Under the pieces are notes generated by a model that was given only the letters and a program-made list of their open reading frames with translations, was not told the DNA's origin and searched no databases. A stretch of 37,296 bases of DNA. Origin: a virus (Duplodnaviria > Heunggongvirae > Uroviricota > Caudoviricetes). The position numbers and the translations under genes were made by a program. The stretch is from positions 1 through 37,296 of IMG/VR virus record IMGVR_UViG_2711768063_000005. The stretch is one strand, 5' to 3'. Below, piece by piece: positions 1 to 16,147 of this stretch. The stretch's first letter is position 1; each line of letters starts with the position of its first letter.

Positions 1-1446
1 ATGAAAATTGAAGCCGTTTTATTCGATTTAGATAACACGTTAGCATCAACAAGTAAGCTAAAAGATATTAGAGAGCGTGGGGCTTATGATGAAATAACAG
101 AAGAATTACTATCAACAGTTAAACCATATAAAGGTACCAAAGAATTACTAGAAAATCTGATTTCAAAAGGTATAAAAACAGGTGTCGTAACTAATTCAAG
201 TAAACGTTATGCAGAAAAAATAATTTCACATTTAAATTTACCAAATTTCGGTACTGTGGTGACATATACTGATGTAGGTTCATCAGGGATGAAACCAAAT
301 CCTACTGGTATTAATTTAGCATTAAAAAATCTAGGAATCTCAAATCCGGAACGGGTCATTTATATTGGGGACGATTATACAGATATTATTGCTAGTTATT
401 ATGCGGGGGTTATACCGATTGTTCCATCATGGGCATCAAGGACTCCTGTTTCTCAAGTGCCAGCCGCCGTATTAAGCACTGAGTTCCTTATAGATAATAT
501 TGATGAGTATGAGAATATAATTCTCATGGCGGAAAATTGTGCACGACACAATAGCTTTGAATTTGAGCGAAAAAGATTCTACTTTGTACCTTTGGATGAG
601 TCCGCTAATGTAATTCCTTCAAGTGAAACTCTATCTACAATATGTCTTGGACGTTATTTTTCGCAAAAAAGTTTACTTACAACAAAATTACACGATTCGC
701 ATCCATTATCTATTGAGATCGCCAAGAAAGAGCATGACGATAATTATGTGCCTCCAGAGTATTGGGGCGATATTTTAGCGCATGCGGCAGATAATATTCC
801 ATCTTTTTTCCGGGCTACTAAAGGTTTTGATATTGTTACAGTAATACCAGCTAAAAAAGGAAAAAAAGAAAGATTAGAGAGAGTCTTAGAAAATGCGCGA
901 AGTAAAAGCAATTCCAATGCTGCTTTTATAGCTGATCTTTTTGTTTTTAGTGAGGGAGCAAAATCACTTAAGACCTTACCAAAGGATCAGCGTTCGATAG
1001 AAATAGAATCTAGTTTGCATATGAATCCCAAATATAAAGGTACGCTTGAAGGTAAGACCGTATTAATATTTGATGATGTCATTACCACAGGCTCAACCTT
1101 AAAAAGAGCTTATTCATTGTTGAGAGACGAAAACGTTAAACATAGTTTAGGATTATGCTTGGCTAAAACAGTCTCTATATTTGAAGAGGATAGGCTTTGT
1201 CCTGAATGCATGTGTCACATTCTTAAAATAAAGACAAACTCTCTAACGGGTATTCGATTTTGGGGGTGTTCAGGATATAATGATGAATCAGATAAGTGTG
1301 ATTACACTGAAAGTATCGTTGAGAAACAATGCCCTAACTGTGGTAGAGATATGGTTAAAAAGTATAATAAATGGAAGAGAGTTCGTTTTTTATCCTGTAC
1401 AGGATGGAATAAAGAACCTCGATGCAATTACACTGAGAGTGAGTGA
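1..1446 (+). CDS. Three-part fusion protein: N-terminal HAD-like hydrolase, central type I phosphoribosyltransferase (ComF-like PRTase), C-terminal tandem topoisomerase-type zinc ribbons; ShosT-like toxin candidate
   Basis: HAD motif I FDLDNTL at residues 8-14 with downstream GVVTNSS, KPNP and IGDDYTD motifs; PRTase signature GKTVLIFDDVITTGSTL; two C-terminal CxxC...GCS/SCTG...CxYTES ribbons. ATG sits exactly at window position 1, so promoter and RBS are off-window. Stop overlaps start of next gene. AT-rich. Confidence 0.75.
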   Translation: MKIEAVLFDLDNTLASTSKLKDIRERGAYDEITEELLSTVKPYKGTKELLENLISKGIKTGVVTNSSKRYAEKIISHLNLPNFGTVVTYTDVGSSGMKPNPTGINLALKNLGISNPERVIYIGDDYTDIIASYYAGVIPIVPSWASRTPVSQVPAAVLSTEFLIDNIDEYENIILMAENCARHNSFEFERKRFYFVPLDESANVIPSSETLSTICLGRYFSQKSLLTTKLHDSHPLSIEIAKKEHDDNYVPPEYWGDILAHAADNIPSFFRATKGFDIVTVIPAKKGKKERLERVLENARSKSNSNAAFIADLFVFSEGAKSLKTLPKDQRSIEIESSLHMNPKYKGTLEGKTVLIFDDVITTGSTLKRAYSLLRDENVKHSLGLCLAKTVSIFEEDRLCPECMCHILKIKTNSLTGIRFWGCSGYNDESDKCDYTESIVEKQCPNCGRDMVKKYNKWKRVRFLSCTGWNKEPRCNYTESE

Positions 1447-2429
1447 TGTTGACAATATCTCCAGACACAGAAAAATTGTTAACACTTAGTGCCCTTAAAG
1501 GAGTGGGTACTAAGTCGTTATCTAGTTTAGGCATGCTCAAAGACTTTTCTAGTTTATCTCTTGAGGAGTTGGTGAGATTATTGGGGGTTAAGGAATTAGC
1601 TTCCGATGATTTTTTAGTGGCTAGAGATTTCGCAAGAAAGAATATTGATATAGCTCATGCTAAAAATCATTCTATAATTTCATTTTTTGATGAATGTTAC
1701 CCTGATACATTAAAGGTTACTAGCGATAGACCTGCAATACTTTATTGTGCTGGTAACATTGATTGTCTGCGTAATAAATGTTTGGCGGTAATTGGTACCC
1801 GTGAACCCACTCTACATGGTGAAACGATTGCAAAAAATATCACCAAGTGGTTCACCAAAAAAGGTTGGACCATTGTAAGTGGCTTGGCTAAAGGTGTTGA
1901 TTCAATTGCTCATACCTCCGCTATTGAAAACCAAGGTAAAACAATAGCAGTCATGGCTCAGGGGTTGGAAAAAATTTATCCCAGAGAGAATAAAAAACTC
2001 GCAATGGATATTATTAGTACAGGAGGGGTATTAATTTCGGAATATGCCTATGGAAGTCATACATTTCGTAATAACTTTGTAGAGCGTGATAGAATACAGG
2101 CAGGATTATCAGCTGGGGTTTTAATGGTTCAATCTGACTTAAAAGGTGGTAGTCTGCATGCATCTCGCTCAGCAGTAAATTATGGAAGATATCTTGTTAT
2201 TCCCAATCAGTCCAGAAGAGATATTCTTAATAGCGAGCCTAAAATACAGGCTAATCTTGCATTTATGAGTGGTGATTATTATTTAATTAGATCATTATTG
2301 AAAGTTAATGGAGATATAAGTAAATCTTTAATAATTATGGAAAGCAGTAACGATTACCTTAAGGTTGAAGAGCAATTGTACGATGCCCTTCATTCATTGC
2401 ATAATCAGTATAATGGTTTTGATTTTTAA
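1446..2429 (+). CDS. DprA/Smf-like (Rossmann/SLOG fold) protein; ShosA-like antitoxin candidate
   Basis: DprA-like core LAVIGTREPT...VSGLAKGVDSIAH...TIAVMAQGL...IYP...GGVLISEY...RNNFVERDRIQAGLSAGVLMVQS...GGSLHASRSA. ATG at 1446 overlaps the TGA of the upstream gene (TGATG coupling); track ORF starts 3 nt earlier at GTG. Confidence 0.75.
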   Translation: MLTISPDTEKLLTLSALKGVGTKSLSSLGMLKDFSSLSLEELVRLLGVKELASDDFLVARDFARKNIDIAHAKNHSIISFFDECYPDTLKVTSDRPAILYCAGNIDCLRNKCLAVIGTREPTLHGETIAKNITKWFTKKGWTIVSGLAKGVDSIAHTSAIENQGKTIAVMAQGLEKIYPRENKKLAMDIISTGGVLISEYAYGSHTFRNNFVERDRIQAGLSAGVLMVQSDLKGGSLHASRSAVNYGRYLVIPNQSRRDILNSEPKIQANLAFMSGDYYLIRSLLKVNGDISKSLIIMESSNDYLKVEEQLYDALHSLHNQYNGFDF

Positions 2430-2494: not shown

Positions 2495-3622
2495 TTAGAA
2501 GGTTACCGTTATCCAATTTTTACCTCGATCATCTCGATATTTAGCTGTCTGGTTTAGAGACTTGTGGCCAAGCAATTTCTGAGTATCAATACCTTGACCT
2601 CCGTAGAGACGTTCGGACAAGGAACGTTGTTCGTGGAATGTCGCTGGAGTACCATCACCCCAATCAATTCCTGCTAAATCTCTCGCTTTACTAAAATTCA
2701 TCGTCAATGTATTGGCTGTAACCTGCGCGCCACGTTCAGCCTGTGAAGTAGTACGAAAAAAATGTACAAGGTATGGGCTGACTACATAGTCACGACAGCG
2801 GGCTACTACATCGCGCAAACTCCAGTTGATCGCATTGAGACGCAGGGAAAGCGGGATGGCGATTTTGCTACCGGTTTTTTCCTGGATGACATGGAGATGA
2901 TCATCCCAAATATCGCTAAATTTCATACGCGAGATATCACCTAACCTCTGGCCGGTAACCAGTGCTAACAGCATGGCATTCCCCATATAACGATGACTGG
3001 CATCTGCGATATCAAAGATTTTTTGCCATTCTTCAAGACTTAACCGTTGTCGGGTAATTTTTCTTCTGGGCTGTTTGGTCGCTAATGCTGGATTATAGCC
3101 TGGAGGGACTTCCCCGTAGTGTTGTGCCTCCTTGAATACATCAATTAGAACGGAGCGGACTACTTGCGCCATCCTCGGTTGCCCAGCAGTGATATACTCG
3201 TCAAGCAATTGTGCGATATCCCTTACATCAACGGATGAAATTAACTTCATTCCTGCTCGCTCCCTGAGCAAGGACACTGGTTTAGCTTTCTGTTTATAGG
3301 TGTTGAGCTTTATATCACCACTTTTCAGTCTGTCATCCTGGATTGCTTGATAGCGATCTAACCAGGTTGATGTTGTGATTGCTTTTCCTTTGCTGGTTGC
3401 GATCCTGTCACTGATAGCCAGAATCTGCCGGGTTCTTTGCTCAGCCAGGCGTGTATTGGCCTCAGTGGCAATAGCAATGGCTTCCGCTTCGTTTGTGCCC
3501 AAAGAATGGAACTTCCCGGTCACTGGATGCTTATATCGCCAATAGACTTTATTTACTTTTCTGCTATAAAGCGGATACAAGTTCGGGACTGAAACATTAT
3601 TTTTACGTGGTCTGGCTGCCAT
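2495..3622 (-). CDS. int: Tyrosine recombinase, lambda Int-family prophage integrase
   Basis: 375 aa; C-terminus TFHEQRSLSERLY...LLGHKSLNQTAKYRDDRGKNW parallels the lambda Int C-terminus (TFHELRSLSARLY...LLGHKSDTMASQYRDDRGREW) including the catalytic Tyr region. Confidence 0.9.
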   Translation of the reverse strand: MAARPRKNNVSVPNLYPLYSRKVNKVYWRYKHPVTGKFHSLGTNEAEAIAIATEANTRLAEQRTRQILAISDRIATSKGKAITTSTWLDRYQAIQDDRLKSGDIKLNTYKQKAKPVSLLRERAGMKLISSVDVRDIAQLLDEYITAGQPRMAQVVRSVLIDVFKEAQHYGEVPPGYNPALATKQPRRKITRQRLSLEEWQKIFDIADASHRYMGNAMLLALVTGQRLGDISRMKFSDIWDDHLHVIQEKTGSKIAIPLSLRLNAINWSLRDVVARCRDYVVSPYLVHFFRTTSQAERGAQVTANTLTMNFSKARDLAGIDWGDGTPATFHEQRSLSERLYGGQGIDTQKLLGHKSLNQTAKYRDDRGKNWITVTF

Positions 3623-3848
3623 TACTTAAAATCCTCTGTAGAATAATGGAATCACTTTTCTTGATGACAGGAGTAACTAACTCCCCAACTAACTCTGCGT
3701 CCTCACGCACTCGCCATAGTCGACCTTGTTTCATTGCCGGTGGACAAAATAAATTCTGCTTAGCATAACGACGCAATGTGGACACACTTGGAGGATTACT
3801 CCTAAATTTTTCCGCAGCCCATTCCTCAAGTGTCAGCATTTGAAGCAT
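3603..3848 (-). CDS. xis: Excisionase (Xis-like)
   Basis: Small basic protein directly upstream of and overlapping int; MLTLEEW...LFCPPAMKQGRLW resembles lambda Xis (MYLTLQEW...IFPPPVKDGREY). Start chosen at the internal ATG with a GAGG RBS; the track ORF extends to 3863 without an RBS. Confidence 0.65.
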   Translation of the reverse strand: MLQMLTLEEWAAEKFRSNPPSVSTLRRYAKQNLFCPPAMKQGRLWRVREDAELVGELVTPVIKKSDSIILQRILSNGSQTT

Positions 3849-5820: not shown

Positions 5821-6256
5821 TTTGCTGCTCCTCATCATATCGACCCTGCAAGGCCGATTAGTTTCTCCACAAAACAGAGAAGAACACCTGCGGTGGCAGC
5901 CGCCCGGATGGATTGAGTTATGAGCCCGTCGTCCGGTGATGTTCTTCTCTGTTTTGTAAAAAGGACGGTACCAGCCGGAAGCAAGGGTACAAGCTGGTAC
6001 CGCCAGGACTACACACAGCATAAAGTTGTGGTGCCGGGTGCCTCCCGGTGCCTGGCGAAGGTTGCACACCAGGCGGGTGGGTATCCACAGAAGGTCGACT
6101 GTCAGCCTCAACCTTAACCCGCGTGCGCTGAGCCGCATTCACCACAACGCTAAGGATTCTCTCTGGTTGAAAATACTTAGCTGTTATGTGCCTGCTTTTA
6201 GCCACATCAGGCGAGGTGGTATCCTTTTAAGCCCGTATACATAAAAGGAAAATCAA
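5821..6256. other. GC-rich structured noncoding region; candidate ncRNA or regulatory element
   Basis: About 430 bp without a credible ORF on either strand (track ORFs here are Pro/Arg/Gly/Cys-rich); contains an 18-bp perfect inverted repeat and a 9-bp stem hairpin. Confidence 0.3.
5869..5957. repeat. 18-bp perfect inverted repeat (ACAAAACAGAGAAGAACA ... TGTTCTTCTCTGTTTTGT) enclosing a 53-nt GC-rich loop
   Basis: Arms at 5869-5886 and 5940-5957 are exact reverse complements; a second hairpin GGTACCAGC-N17-GCTGGTACC follows at 5967-6001. Confidence 0.8.
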
Positions 6257-13927: not shown

Positions 13928-13946
13928 GACGGCCATATTGGCCGTC
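13928..13946. terminator. Bidirectional hairpin between convergent Q and the cargo cassette
   Basis: Perfect inverted repeat GACGGCCA-tat-TGGCCGTC in an AT-rich context; overlaps the stop of the minus-strand gene. Confidence 0.45.
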
Positions 13947-15123
13947 AGCTAAATAAATATGTAATAGCATAAGGCGTAAGTAAAAAGTAGAATCTAAATG
14001 TAAGATATAAGCCACATAAAACTATAATTCCTAATGAGGCAAAAACAATTTTCTGAACAAGCAATCTTGTGGTTAAACTATCAAATGTATCCTTTATATC
14101 TTCGTAAATAGCCTTGAAGTTATATTCTGCTTGTTGTTTTTTATGATTTAACTCATCATTTATTGCTGTTAAAGTTTGCCATTGATTAAATAGAACAAAT
14201 AGAATCATAATAGTGAAGAACAATGCACCCAACACTACAGCTGTGTTTATTAATGCTTGACTATCCCAACCATTAGCCTGCTTCATTTGAGTCGCAACGA
14301 TAATTGTTGCGACGGGGATACCTAATATCTGATTTTGTATGTCACTGAATACTTTATGTATTTTCCCCATCTCTTCTATTTTGGCTACTCGTAACTGATC
14401 CAGTATTTTCTCGTAAGAAAAACCAGAAACGAATACTTTGTATCCTTTTTGATAACTTTCATAAAGTTGTCCTAAATCCCTTAACATGAAGGAAAAAGAG
14501 GTTTCTTTAGTTTTAGATTCACATGATGATTTTATACTACTTGCTAAAATAGTAAGTTTTTGATCTTTATGCGTATCTTCTGCAAAGTTTGCGATCAAAT
14601 TATGAATCAGATCTCCATTAACATTCATAAGATCATCGCTAGAATAATTTACTGGAATTTTTAGTACGTTGGATTCGACGAATACCAATTCAAAATTTGT
14701 TTCATCTAAATAAGCAGAACAATCTTTGAATAAAGTAATTAAGCTCAAAACATCTCTGTACTTGGATATAATAGCAGGCGACTTTTTATCCCTGTTGTGA
14801 TAATTAAGTTCGATTATAAAGAAGTTACTGGCTTCCTTTATCCTATTTTTAGGATTTTTTAAATACTCATTAAAAGAGAAATGTAGCTGCCCCAATCGTA
14901 ATTTGGGGGGGGTTATATGTAAGGTTATAGTTTGGCCTAACTCAATGTTGCCAGATTCAAGGGTGATGCCAAAATCATGGGGATTCTCTGTGATATCGTT
15001 GATGATGTCACAGAGCTCCTCGTTTGAAAGAATGAGTGATGCTTCAGATAGGGTACCTGCAAATGTAGCGGCCTTGTAAATAGTCACTAAGTCTTTGAAG
15101 GTTCTCTGATTGTTACTGCTCAT
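13945..15123 (-). CDS. Membrane-anchored protein of unknown function (about 290-aa soluble N-terminal region, two C-terminal TM helices); partner of the NA37-like gene
   Basis: ATG at 15123 with AGGTG 6 nt upstream, inside the last codons of the upstream gene (11-nt overlap, coupling). Hydrophobic segments ALINTAVVLGALFFTIMILFVLF and IVFASLGIIVLCGLYLTFRFYFLL near the C-terminus. AT-rich. No family recognised. Confidence 0.7.
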   Translation of the reverse strand: MSSNNQRTFKDLVTIYKAATFAGTLSEASLILSNEELCDIINDITENPHDFGITLESGNIELGQTITLHITPPKLRLGQLHFSFNEYLKNPKNRIKEASNFFIIELNYHNRDKKSPAIISKYRDVLSLITLFKDCSAYLDETNFELVFVESNVLKIPVNYSSDDLMNVNGDLIHNLIANFAEDTHKDQKLTILASSIKSSCESKTKETSFSFMLRDLGQLYESYQKGYKVFVSGFSYEKILDQLRVAKIEEMGKIHKVFSDIQNQILGIPVATIIVATQMKQANGWDSQALINTAVVLGALFFTIMILFVLFNQWQTLTAINDELNHKKQQAEYNFKAIYEDIKDTFDSLTTRLLVQKIVFASLGIIVLCGLYLTFRFYFLLTPYAITYLFS

Positions 15124-16147
15124 CCTCTTCACCTAATTCTGATAAAATCTCTGATCTTAGCGTATCCGGAATCTCGGTAAGTATCAATTTATCGTTTTCT
15201 GAATCATAAAGAACGCTGCCATCATGCAAGGCCGCACGCTCGAATTTCAGAGACCAATGTTTGGACTTTCCTTTGAAACTAACAAGCCCACGTATAACGT
15301 TGCCATCAGGCACGAACCCATCAGAGAACTCCAGATCGTCATTGGTTAACTTTTCAACTAACAACTCAGGAGCAGTTGGCCATATCTCGTTTGCAAAAAT
15401 TTGAGTGTCGAAAGTTTCACCAGAACGATTTAAATTTTTTAATTTTTCATGAGCCTTATTTAGGAACTCTTCACGTGCCTCTGGTTCAAAACCTCTTTCA
15501 GTAGCAAATTCTAAAAGTGCATTCCGTAATTTTGTTGTTTCTTGTTTGGCAATTAGAATATCGTTGCAACCTAAAAACTTTTTGAAATAACCTGCTACTG
15601 AATTTTGCCCCTTTAGAAAGCTAATATATCTCTCTTTGCCATTCTGGCGCCCAGTTAAGTCAATTCGTCCCGCTACTCGAAGTTTAGCAATGTCTAGATA
15701 TTCACTTTCTTGAATTTCAAAATCGTGGACTGAAGAGCCAACTGCTGATGTTAGGATTGCAACCATCAAATAATGATTTCCATTTACCTCATTATGGGCA
15801 ATTATTACATAACCACCAGTAGACATTGATTCATCATCGGCTCTGGCTTTTAAATGATTGATCATTCGGATACTAGTATCATAAAAACTATGTGTTTTAT
15901 TTACGAAATAATCATCAACGATATTACCCATAGGGTAACTATCGCGGTCATCTTCAAATTTCCCATATCCTTTACCTGCTCTCCCAGAGTACCTTTCAGT
16001 AAGTGCGTTAGAGAGGTCTTTTGATGCTTGCTGAACAGGTTTTTCTGAAGGACAAGGAATAATGGTGGCTAACCCCTGTTGTTCCTTGTTCATAATGTGA
16101 ACAATAAACTTATGAGTGATATTAGTGGGGGTCGCTGATGCAGTCAT
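15113..16147 (-). CDS. NdpA/YejK-like nucleoid-associated protein homologue (NA37 family), phage-encoded
   Basis: Full-length collinearity with E. coli YejK as I recall it: [22 protein letters not shown] vs [38 protein letters not shown] vs [25 protein letters not shown]...FLG vs TRYLTFLKG...FLG. AAGGA RBS 8 nt upstream of the ATG; AT-rich. Confidence 0.8.
   Translation of the reverse strand: [344 protein letters not shown]

Follow-up and report, generated by a model that had tools for sequence, protein, structure and literature searches.

The window analysed here covers positions 1 to 37,296 of IMG/VR record IMGVR_UViG_2711768063_000005, a stretch of 37,296 nucleotides (nt) from a virus of the Caudoviricetes, and it is identical to the sequence of Escherichia coli 2c3 (chicken, Canada; chromosome NZ_CM176618.1). 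At its left end, two neighbouring genes, referred to as gene 1 and gene 2, encode a putative toxin-antitoxin pair related to ShosTA, a system composed of a phosphoribosyltransferase (PRTase) toxin and a DprA-like antitoxin. The prophage that carries the pair in 2c3 is e14-like, integrated at icd and complete in its structural module; the pair occupies its left end, with icd on one side and intE/xisE on the other. The features of the locus are as follows.

1..1446, plus strand: gene 1, shosT-like putative toxin gene, 481 amino acids (RefSeq WP_033805325.1, labelled 'HAD-IA family hydrolase')
1..495, plus strand: HAD-type phosphatase domain of gene 1, residues 1-165, in which the DxDxT nucleophile motif is intact (Pfam HAD_2 2.6e-24, Hydrolase 2.7e-20)
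496..1182, plus strand: PRTase domain of gene 1 with a long N-terminal 'hood'/linker, residues 166-394 (Pfam Pribosyltran 8.2e-8)
1198..1299, plus strand: zinc ribbon 1 of gene 1, topoisomerase-I type, with C400, C403, C423 and C433 (Pfam Zn_ribbon_Top1)
1330..1425, plus strand: zinc ribbon 2 of gene 1, topoisomerase-I type, with C444, C447, C466 and C475 (the best Zn_ribbon_Top1 stretch, residues 442-480)
1446..2429, plus strand: gene 2, shosA-like putative antitoxin gene, 327 amino acids from the ATG (WP_033805324.1)
1659-2216, plus strand: DprA Rossmann domain of gene 2, residues 72-257
2495..3848, minus strand: intE and xisE (RefSeq annotation), which form the cargo slot's right-hand border in the e14-like prophage

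Both open reading frames are present and are coupled in the way that an earlier note on this sequence had claimed: the TGA of gene 1 (1444-1446) and the ATG of gene 2 (1446-1448) have one base in common, within TGATG. A GTG at 1443 is open as an alternative start of gene 2. The genes are adjacent and in the same orientation, in the order toxin then antitoxin, which is the adjacency looked for in ShosTA. The AT-richness described in that note was also observed, with a GC fraction of 0.351 in gene 1 and 0.356 in gene 2, against 0.457 in int and 0.501 in the whole window. The int gene (2495-3622, minus strand; Pfam Arm-DNA-bind_1 2.1e-37 and Phage_integrase 8.4e-18) is convergent with gene 2 across a 65-nt spacer, in agreement with the position at the prophage end proposed earlier, and no terminator-like site was detected within this spacer. 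In the source genome, gene 1 is preceded by the icd stop codon and then by a strong terminator, with an in-frame TAG 30 nt 5' of the ATG, a GGAG 6 nt 5' of it, and a single promoter-like site in front of the gene. Since the icd stop, the terminator, the in-frame TAG and the GGAG all lie 5' of the ATG, gene 1 is complete, and the concern raised in the note that it might be a fragment of a longer gene was dispelled by the upstream extension.

The domains that had been read in the gene 1 protein, namely HAD, PRTase and two topoisomerase-type zinc ribbons, are all found by Pfam, with the PRTase (32.1 bits, cut-off 26.3) and the ribbons (Zn_ribbon_Top1, PF01396, 8.8e-9, 35.5 bits, cut-off 32, in two stretches) above their cut-offs. 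The HAD domain carries the FDLDNT motif at residues 8-13, and the 24 family members aligned all keep D9, D11 and T13 of motif I as well as K98, D124 and D128. The nearest solved HAD structures are phosphoglycolate phosphatases, and a pyrophosphatase of B. thetaiotaomicron matches as well. Because the residues of the DxDxT motif are invariant in the subfamily, a true phosphoryl-transfer HAD is plausible in this protein. In the PRTase domain, the loop for phosphoribosyl pyrophosphate (PRPP), IFDDVITTGST, corresponds to residues 356-366, and D358, D359, T362, T363 and G364 are invariant in the same 24 members. The zinc-ribbon tail adds 87 residues beyond the HAD and PRTase domains. All four cysteines of ribbon 1 are invariant (24/24 members), and the family profile matches the zinc ribbon of E. 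coli topoisomerase I (4rul_A 600-638, E 0.0012). Ribbon 2 is found in the forms of about 480 residues and is missing from those of about 444 residues. The AlphaFold2 model of the whole protein is confident, with a predicted local distance difference test (pLDDT) score of 91.4 and a predicted template modelling (pTM) score of 0.87.

The DprA-like nature of gene 2, also part of the earlier description, is borne out by Pfam DNA_processg_A (PF02481, 5e-60). The PADLOC model of ShosA, PDLC03961, matches it at 1.3e-79, covering residues 2-270 of the protein and positions 6-277 of the 303 in the profile. Among solved structures, sequence matches to ShosA were obtained with 9vzo (1.8e-30) and 8zva (2.2e-30). 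The protein is 32% identical over 262 residues to the ShosA of the P2-like phage 10W; the fragment of that ShosA which aligns is 100% identical to the solved ShosA of avian pathogenic E. coli (APEC) O1. In the pairwise alignment, R139 and R261, two of the three arginines implicated in the binding of single-stranded DNA (ssDNA) by ShosA, correspond to R119 and R241 of gene 2. A weak match to the SLOG family LDcluster4 (1.7e-4, Pfam) was also observed.

The gene 1 protein is connected to the characterised ShosT at the level of families and folds. The general PADLOC model of ShosT, PDLC03962, matches its PRTase part at 1.8e-14, and the general ShosT and ShosA models also match both the characterised pair and the short pair of Salmonella phage SopEPhi. 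A profile built from 24 family members matches the ShosT chains of the PDB at 7e-9 in two stretches. When the alignment of the gene 1 family was compared with that of the APEC O1-type family by hhalign, a probability of 99.3% and an E value of 3e-20 were obtained over 322 columns; the alignment starts at residue 1, finishes where the PRTase ends and takes in both HAD and PRTase. In this alignment, D358/D359 of gene 1 align with D331/D332 of the characterised ShosT. In addition, the top three PDB matches of the gene 1 model in Foldseek are the ShosT structures 8zvb, 8zvd and 8zvc (E 1.6e-13 to 3e-12), with alignments of about 440 columns and low TM scores; these low scores suggest that the predicted domain packing differs from that of the solved ShosT. 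The ShosTA identity proposed in the earlier note is thus supported by the PADLOC, Foldseek and hhalign results, and the composition that it gave for the system, a PRTase toxin plus a DprA-like antitoxin, agrees with the published one (PMC11961720, PMC12961424).

Several properties of the APEC O1 system bear on the reading of the 2c3 pair. The crystal structure of its ShosT comprises a hydrolase domain at the N-terminus (residues 1-164), which has pyrophosphatase activity, and a non-canonical PRTase (165-424). The D331A/D332A mutant loses all toxicity (PMC11961720), and the hydrolase mutant R56A has a marginal effect only. ShosA needs its binding of ssDNA as well as its binding of RecA to function as an antitoxin. 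It rescues the cell without binding the toxin, which makes the system a type IV toxin-antitoxin. The characterised ShosTA protects against T7 and lambda, and its phage triggers are host shut-off combined with ShosA instability (T7 Gp0.7), or phage ssDNA competing for ShosA. The earlier note had regarded both the HAD domain and the zinc ribbons as additions that may mark a distinct subtype. Part of this stands: the ribbons are absent from the characterised ShosT, and gene 1 belongs to a distinct sequence subfamily. The HAD domain, however, is no addition, since the APEC O1 structure already contains the N-terminal hydrolase domain.

We therefore consider it likely that the pair is a type IV toxin-antitoxin of the ShosTA family that acts as an abortive-infection module and forms exchangeable cargo of the e14-like prophage at icd. 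The bases for this assignment are homology, domain architecture, conserved catalytic residues, gene pairing, location in a mobile element and purifying selection.

Some observations weigh against this assignment. The match of the general ShosT model to gene 1 covers about half of the profile (90-214 of 237 positions), and gene 1 gives no match to PDLC03012, PADLOC's narrow model for the characterised ShosT; this places the protein in a different subfamily from the APEC O1 type. Direct comparison of gene 1 with the characterised ShosT by BLASTP gives a barely significant 6e-4, with about 20% identity in the locally aligned stretches. ShosT was not found by phmmer searches of the PDB with gene 1 or its C-terminal two-thirds, even at E 10; the two ShosT families are connected solely by profiles, hhalign and fold comparison. 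The gene order also differs, toxin then antitoxin in the window and antitoxin then toxin in APEC O1; the phage 10W pair likewise has ShosA (349 amino acids as annotated) before ShosT (424 amino acids). In gene 2, the position of the essential ShosA residue R234 is taken by Glu213 in the pairwise alignment, with arginines present at the adjacent R214 and R216. The nearest ortholog of gene 1, from Pectobacterium parmentieri (78% identity, 481 amino acids), lacks a DprA partner gene of its own immediately downstream (L004 6001-10812). One might not expect a lethal toxin to tolerate the lack of its partner; a second HAD-PRTase and DprA pair adjoins the ortholog. Furthermore, no experiment on the zinc-ribbon ShosT subfamily was found in the searchable literature.

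The interval between icd and intE was compared in five genomes carrying e14-like elements. It is a variable cargo slot, with a different content in each of the five:

K-12 e14: ymfD, ymfE and the abortive-infection gene lit
EC05: hypothetical genes
JNE131328 (E. coli; L019 2268-4595): a single 775-amino-acid TPR protein
MS8320 (E. coli; L020 2244-4618): an AAA ATPase and HNH endonuclease pair, presumably of Septu composition
2c3 (the window): the ShosTA-like pair

This variability agrees with the cargo position adjoining int that had been proposed for the pair. In the alignment, the five genomes have in common the 3' end of icd, the terminator and three direct TTATCAAAA repeats, which are identical in the five e14-like lysogens. 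The repeats directly follow the icd terminator, 48-85 nt upstream of window position 1 (L001 7918-7955). On the left, homology breaks off directly behind the third repeat, which leaves 48 nt to the start of gene 1; on the right, the sequence becomes similar to other e14-like elements again from about 2520-2610, within the intE 3' end. These limits on both sides mark the pair as a cassette, about 2.6 kb long, that occupies a defined hotspot. The TTATCAAAA repeats are probably arm-type (P') sites of IntE. Since they overlap the -35 element of the sole promoter-like site before gene 1, Int binding might affect expression of the cargo. At the DNA level, the pair was found by megablast in 1 of 5,426 complete E. 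coli genomes, the source strain itself, and the phage collection gave no megablast match to it.

Elsewhere in the prophage, a second AT-rich island was observed at 13945-16147 (minus strand, GC 0.32-0.39), between the Q antiterminator and the holin. It contains two overlapping genes, one for an NA37/NdpA-like nucleoid-associated protein (344 amino acids, PF04245 8e-69) and one for a 392-amino-acid protein that had no match in Pfam or PADLOC. As this is the classic lambdoid moron position, the two genes may represent uncharacterised cargo or a defence pair. At 5835-6145 on the minus strand, RefSeq annotates a frameshifted hypothetical gene, and the same frameshifted gene is annotated in JNE131328, which points to an old lesion shared by related prophages.

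Selection on gene 1 was assessed against the 78%-identical Pectobacterium ortholog. Because the synonymous substitution rate (dS) between the two is saturated, the proportions of nonsynonymous (pN) and synonymous (pS) differences were compared and no whole-gene ratio of nonsynonymous to synonymous rates (dN/dS) was calculated. For the complete gene, pN was 0.14 and pS 0.78 (saturated). The corresponding values by part were 0.12 and 0.74 for the HAD domain, 0.15 and 0.84 for the PRTase domain, and 0.16 and 0.67 for the zinc-ribbon tail. These values indicate strong purifying selection on all three parts of gene 1.

The zinc-ribbon form is widespread. A word-indexed search returned 160 clusters, most of them of 478-499 amino acids with the same Pfam string as gene 1, from Pectobacterium, Pseudomonas, Vibrio, Shewanella, Acinetobacter, Burkholderia, Duganella and others. 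A one-ribbon form of 442-448 amino acids was found in Citrobacter, Providencia, Erwinia, Serratia and E. coli. An exhaustive profile search identified 190 HAD-PRTase clusters (50% identity) at E <= 1e-30. Among the best 150 of these 190, CxxC motifs after the PRTase loop number two in 19 clusters, one in 42 and none in 69, and N-terminal extensions of more than 90 residues are present in 32. About a fifth of the best 150 carry extensions of 100-440 residues before the HAD domain, for a total length of 500-844 amino acids (P0248, P0261, P0276, P0287, P0310, P0327 and others). A DprA partner, 40-51% identical to gene 2, was located directly downstream of the gene 1 ortholog at five places:

Vibrio cholerae: ShosA ortholog directly downstream of the gene 1 ortholog
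P. aeruginosa Pf prophage: ShosA ortholog downstream, the pair adjoining Kiwa
Burkholderia: ShosA ortholog downstream, the pair adjoining an integrase
Serratia P4-like satellites: ShosA ortholog downstream
E. coli P4-like satellites: ShosA ortholog downstream, the pair located between int and psu

The Pf prophage pair is that of phage PfAC02a (OR790968), in which ORF6 is named ShosT and ORF5 ShosA in both the record and the paper; the evidence for phage protection there is correlative only. The zinc-ribbon subfamily is also listed in Table S1A of Rousset et al. 2022, among the cargo of the P4-satellite hotspot, while the pair tested in that study was the P2/APEC O1 one. Judged from these sequences, zinc-ribbon ShosT constitutes a large subfamily across Proteobacteria and mobile elements. 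The form that the earlier note had considered unusual is thus a large, conserved and already catalogued one. No literature describing a zinc-ribbon ShosT subtype or discussing the ribbons was found; the text of the Millman preprint gives no architecture or donor details for ShosTA, and Russell and Mulvey 2015 do not mention HAD or zinc modules. The window pair is accordingly a new member of ShosTA in a new carrier, and its architectural subfamily is catalogued and experimentally uncharacterised. In P. parmentieri, the gene 1 ortholog converges on a second pair, consisting of a 413-amino-acid HAD-PRTase (26% identical to gene 1) and a 551-amino-acid DprA protein with 42% identity to gene 2 across its first ~310 residues, an arrangement of two toxins and one extended antitoxin.

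From homology to the APEC O1 pair, we infer toxicity, neutralisation, phage protection and a role of the zinc ribbons for the 2c3 pair, and the following mechanism is proposed. Gene 1 would act as the toxin, with the PRTase binding PRPP and disturbing nucleotide metabolism and DNA replication. Its HAD domain may remove a phosphate-containing product; this could be pyrophosphate or, given that the DxDxT nucleophile is intact, perhaps the 5'-phosphate that the PRTase product carries. Gene 2 would act as a DprA-like protein that binds ssDNA, recruits RecA and counters the damage, leaving the toxin unbound. The toxin-first order and the one-base stop/start overlap would couple translation of the antitoxin to that of the toxin. 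Infection could tip the balance when host expression is shut off while ShosA is unstable, or when phage ssDNA intermediates titrate ShosA. The C-terminal ribbons of E. coli topoisomerase I bind ssDNA, and the two C-terminal ribbons of gene 1 are of the same kind; their most likely role would therefore be to anchor the toxin on ssDNA or on a partner bound to DNA, or to direct it there. A stronger proposal is that the ribbons and the intact HAD mark a ShosT subfamily that acts on or at ssDNA, beyond the free nucleotide pool alone. We regard this proposal as rather doubtful; under it, the toxin could be recruited to phage replication intermediates, or it could use a DNA-linked acceptor. If it were true, ShosT and ShosA would represent a weaponised counterpart of the ssDNA hand-off between ComFC and DprA, and it would offer a pointer to the physiological substrate of ShosT.

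Other explanations of the pair were weighed against the ShosTA abortive-infection assignment. The pair could be a plain addiction module, stabilising the prophage or its cargo slot by post-segregational killing and having no anti-phage role. Its toxin-antitoxin architecture with translational coupling and its place beside int/xis at the prophage end would fit, as would the integrases that adjoin it in other elements, and ShosTA itself was first reported as a toxin-antitoxin pair, with the defence role found later. However, protection against T7 and lambda is on record for the characterised relatives, K-12 has the abortive-infection gene lit in this slot, and orthologs occur in defence-rich contexts, namely the P4 psu-int hotspot and beside Kiwa in the Pf phage, which makes addiction alone an unlikely account. 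Small-molecule synthesis appears less probable still: here the PRTase would make a nucleotide derivative that the HAD dephosphorylates to a nucleoside-like signal or toxin, with the DprA protein as a SLOG-type sensor. In its favour, the DxDxT nucleophile and HAD motifs II-IV are invariant in the gene 1 subfamily and lost in the characterised one. It also has a parallel in the PRTase and HAD of Ter systems, which have been read as synthesising a nucleoside derivative (PMC7824862), and it accords with the weak LDcluster4 match of gene 2. Against it, ssDNA and RecA binding by ShosA are both needed in the characterised system, the arginines equivalent to the ssDNA-contacting R139 and R261 are kept in gene 2, and DNA-type ribbons favour a nucleic acid over a diffusible signal.

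We find it very improbable that the pair handles DNA as ComFC and DprA do, with a zinc-finger, PRTase-fold ssDNA binder passing ssDNA to a RecA loader for prophage recombination or replication. H. pylori ComF is the best PDB phmmer match of the C-terminal two-thirds of gene 1 (E 0.0035), and there is a weak NCBIfam comF match (2.4e-6); gene 2 reaches 188.9 bits on the dprA equivalog, just below the cut-off of 191.15. ComFC itself combines a four-cysteine zinc finger with a PRTase fold, binds ssDNA and has DprA as its partner in other species (PMC9005727). On the other hand, the comF score of 27.6 is far from its cut-off of 233.55, the ribbons of gene 1 are C-terminal and of topoisomerase type, unlike the N-terminal finger of ComF, a HAD domain is fused, and the whole-body homolog of gene 1 is ShosT. 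The pair is also AT-rich exchangeable cargo that lies outside the conserved phage replication module. The least credible explanation is that the pair is an inactive relic, horizontally acquired and nonfunctional in 2c3. Its occurrence in a single one of the complete E. coli genomes and the frameshifted pseudogene nearby in the prophage would be in line with decay, but both reading frames are intact with all invariant family residues present, the three parts of gene 1 appear to be under strong purifying selection, and a ribosome-binding site is present together with a promoter-like one.

On the preferred reading as a ShosTA-family abortive-infection module, the pair adds a defence-type cassette to the contents of the icd-intE slot, whose borders are legible at single-nucleotide resolution. 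ShosT exists in several architectures, of which the one investigated to date is a single example; the zinc-ribbon form, in which the HAD active site is intact, occurs commonly in Proteobacteria and in mobile elements. Comparing the two forms could help to identify the substrate of ShosT and the way in which infection is sensed. The RefSeq names 'HAD-IA family hydrolase' and 'DNA-processing protein DprA' mask what is likely a toxin-antitoxin defence pair.

Among known systems, the closest comparison is with ShosTA of APEC O1 and P2-like phages (PDB 8ZVA-8ZVD, 9VZO, 9W2P/Q; PMC11961720, PMC12961424; pFR105 of Rousset 2022), which likewise consists of a PRTase toxin and a DprA-like antitoxin and is carried in a prophage hotspot. 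Its toxin resembles gene 1 in having an N-terminal HAD-fold hydrolase and a non-canonical PRTase with a long insert, with the DD pair and the phosphate loop kept, and its antitoxin resembles gene 2 in the SAM-like N-terminus and the DprA Rossmann domain (32% identity). The differences concern the HAD nucleophile DxDxT, intact in gene 1 and replaced by Ser/Ala throughout the APEC O1-type family, and the C-terminal tail, which holds two Cys4 topoisomerase-type ribbons in gene 1 and is Cys-free, ending in YDxWDWP, in the APEC O1-type family. The carrier also differs, an e14-like prophage for the window pair and a P2-like one for the characterised pair. The short ShosTA of SopEPhi (orf14/orf15) has the toxin-then-antitoxin order of the window pair and matches the same general PADLOC models, and its ShosA is 39% identical to gene 2 over 210 residues, whereas its toxin of 193 amino acids is a PRTase only, without HAD or zinc ribbons.

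ComFC and DprA share with the window pair the combination of a PRTase-fold protein bearing a Cys4 zinc module with a DprA-family RecA loader (PMC9005727), but their zinc module differs in type and sits at the opposite end, and the window pair has a fused HAD and no competence context. Membership in the ComFC/DprA competence families was rejected on the comF (TIGR00201) and dprA (TIGR00732) scores given above and on PRK10736 (171 against 495). PsyrTA/RqlHI also pairs a DprA-like antitoxin with a PRTase-containing toxin, and weak PADLOC matches were obtained to PsyrA (4.1e-33) and PsyrT (2.4e-4, positions 558-685 of 689, the PRTase end only). This system was set aside because PsyrT/RqlH is a RecQ-like helicase-PRTase fusion and Pfam detects no helicase domain in the window pair. 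A type III-A retron PRTase effector was likewise rejected, with PRTase_III-A at just E 0.0092 and no reverse transcriptase annotated in the prophage. The pairs of PfAC02a (51% identity for the toxin and 50% for the antitoxin) and of the P4 satellites (47% and 49%) share with the window pair the architecture, the gene order and the adjoining integrases or other defence genes, and they differ in their carrier elements and, for the P4-satellite form, in having one zinc ribbon where gene 1 has two.

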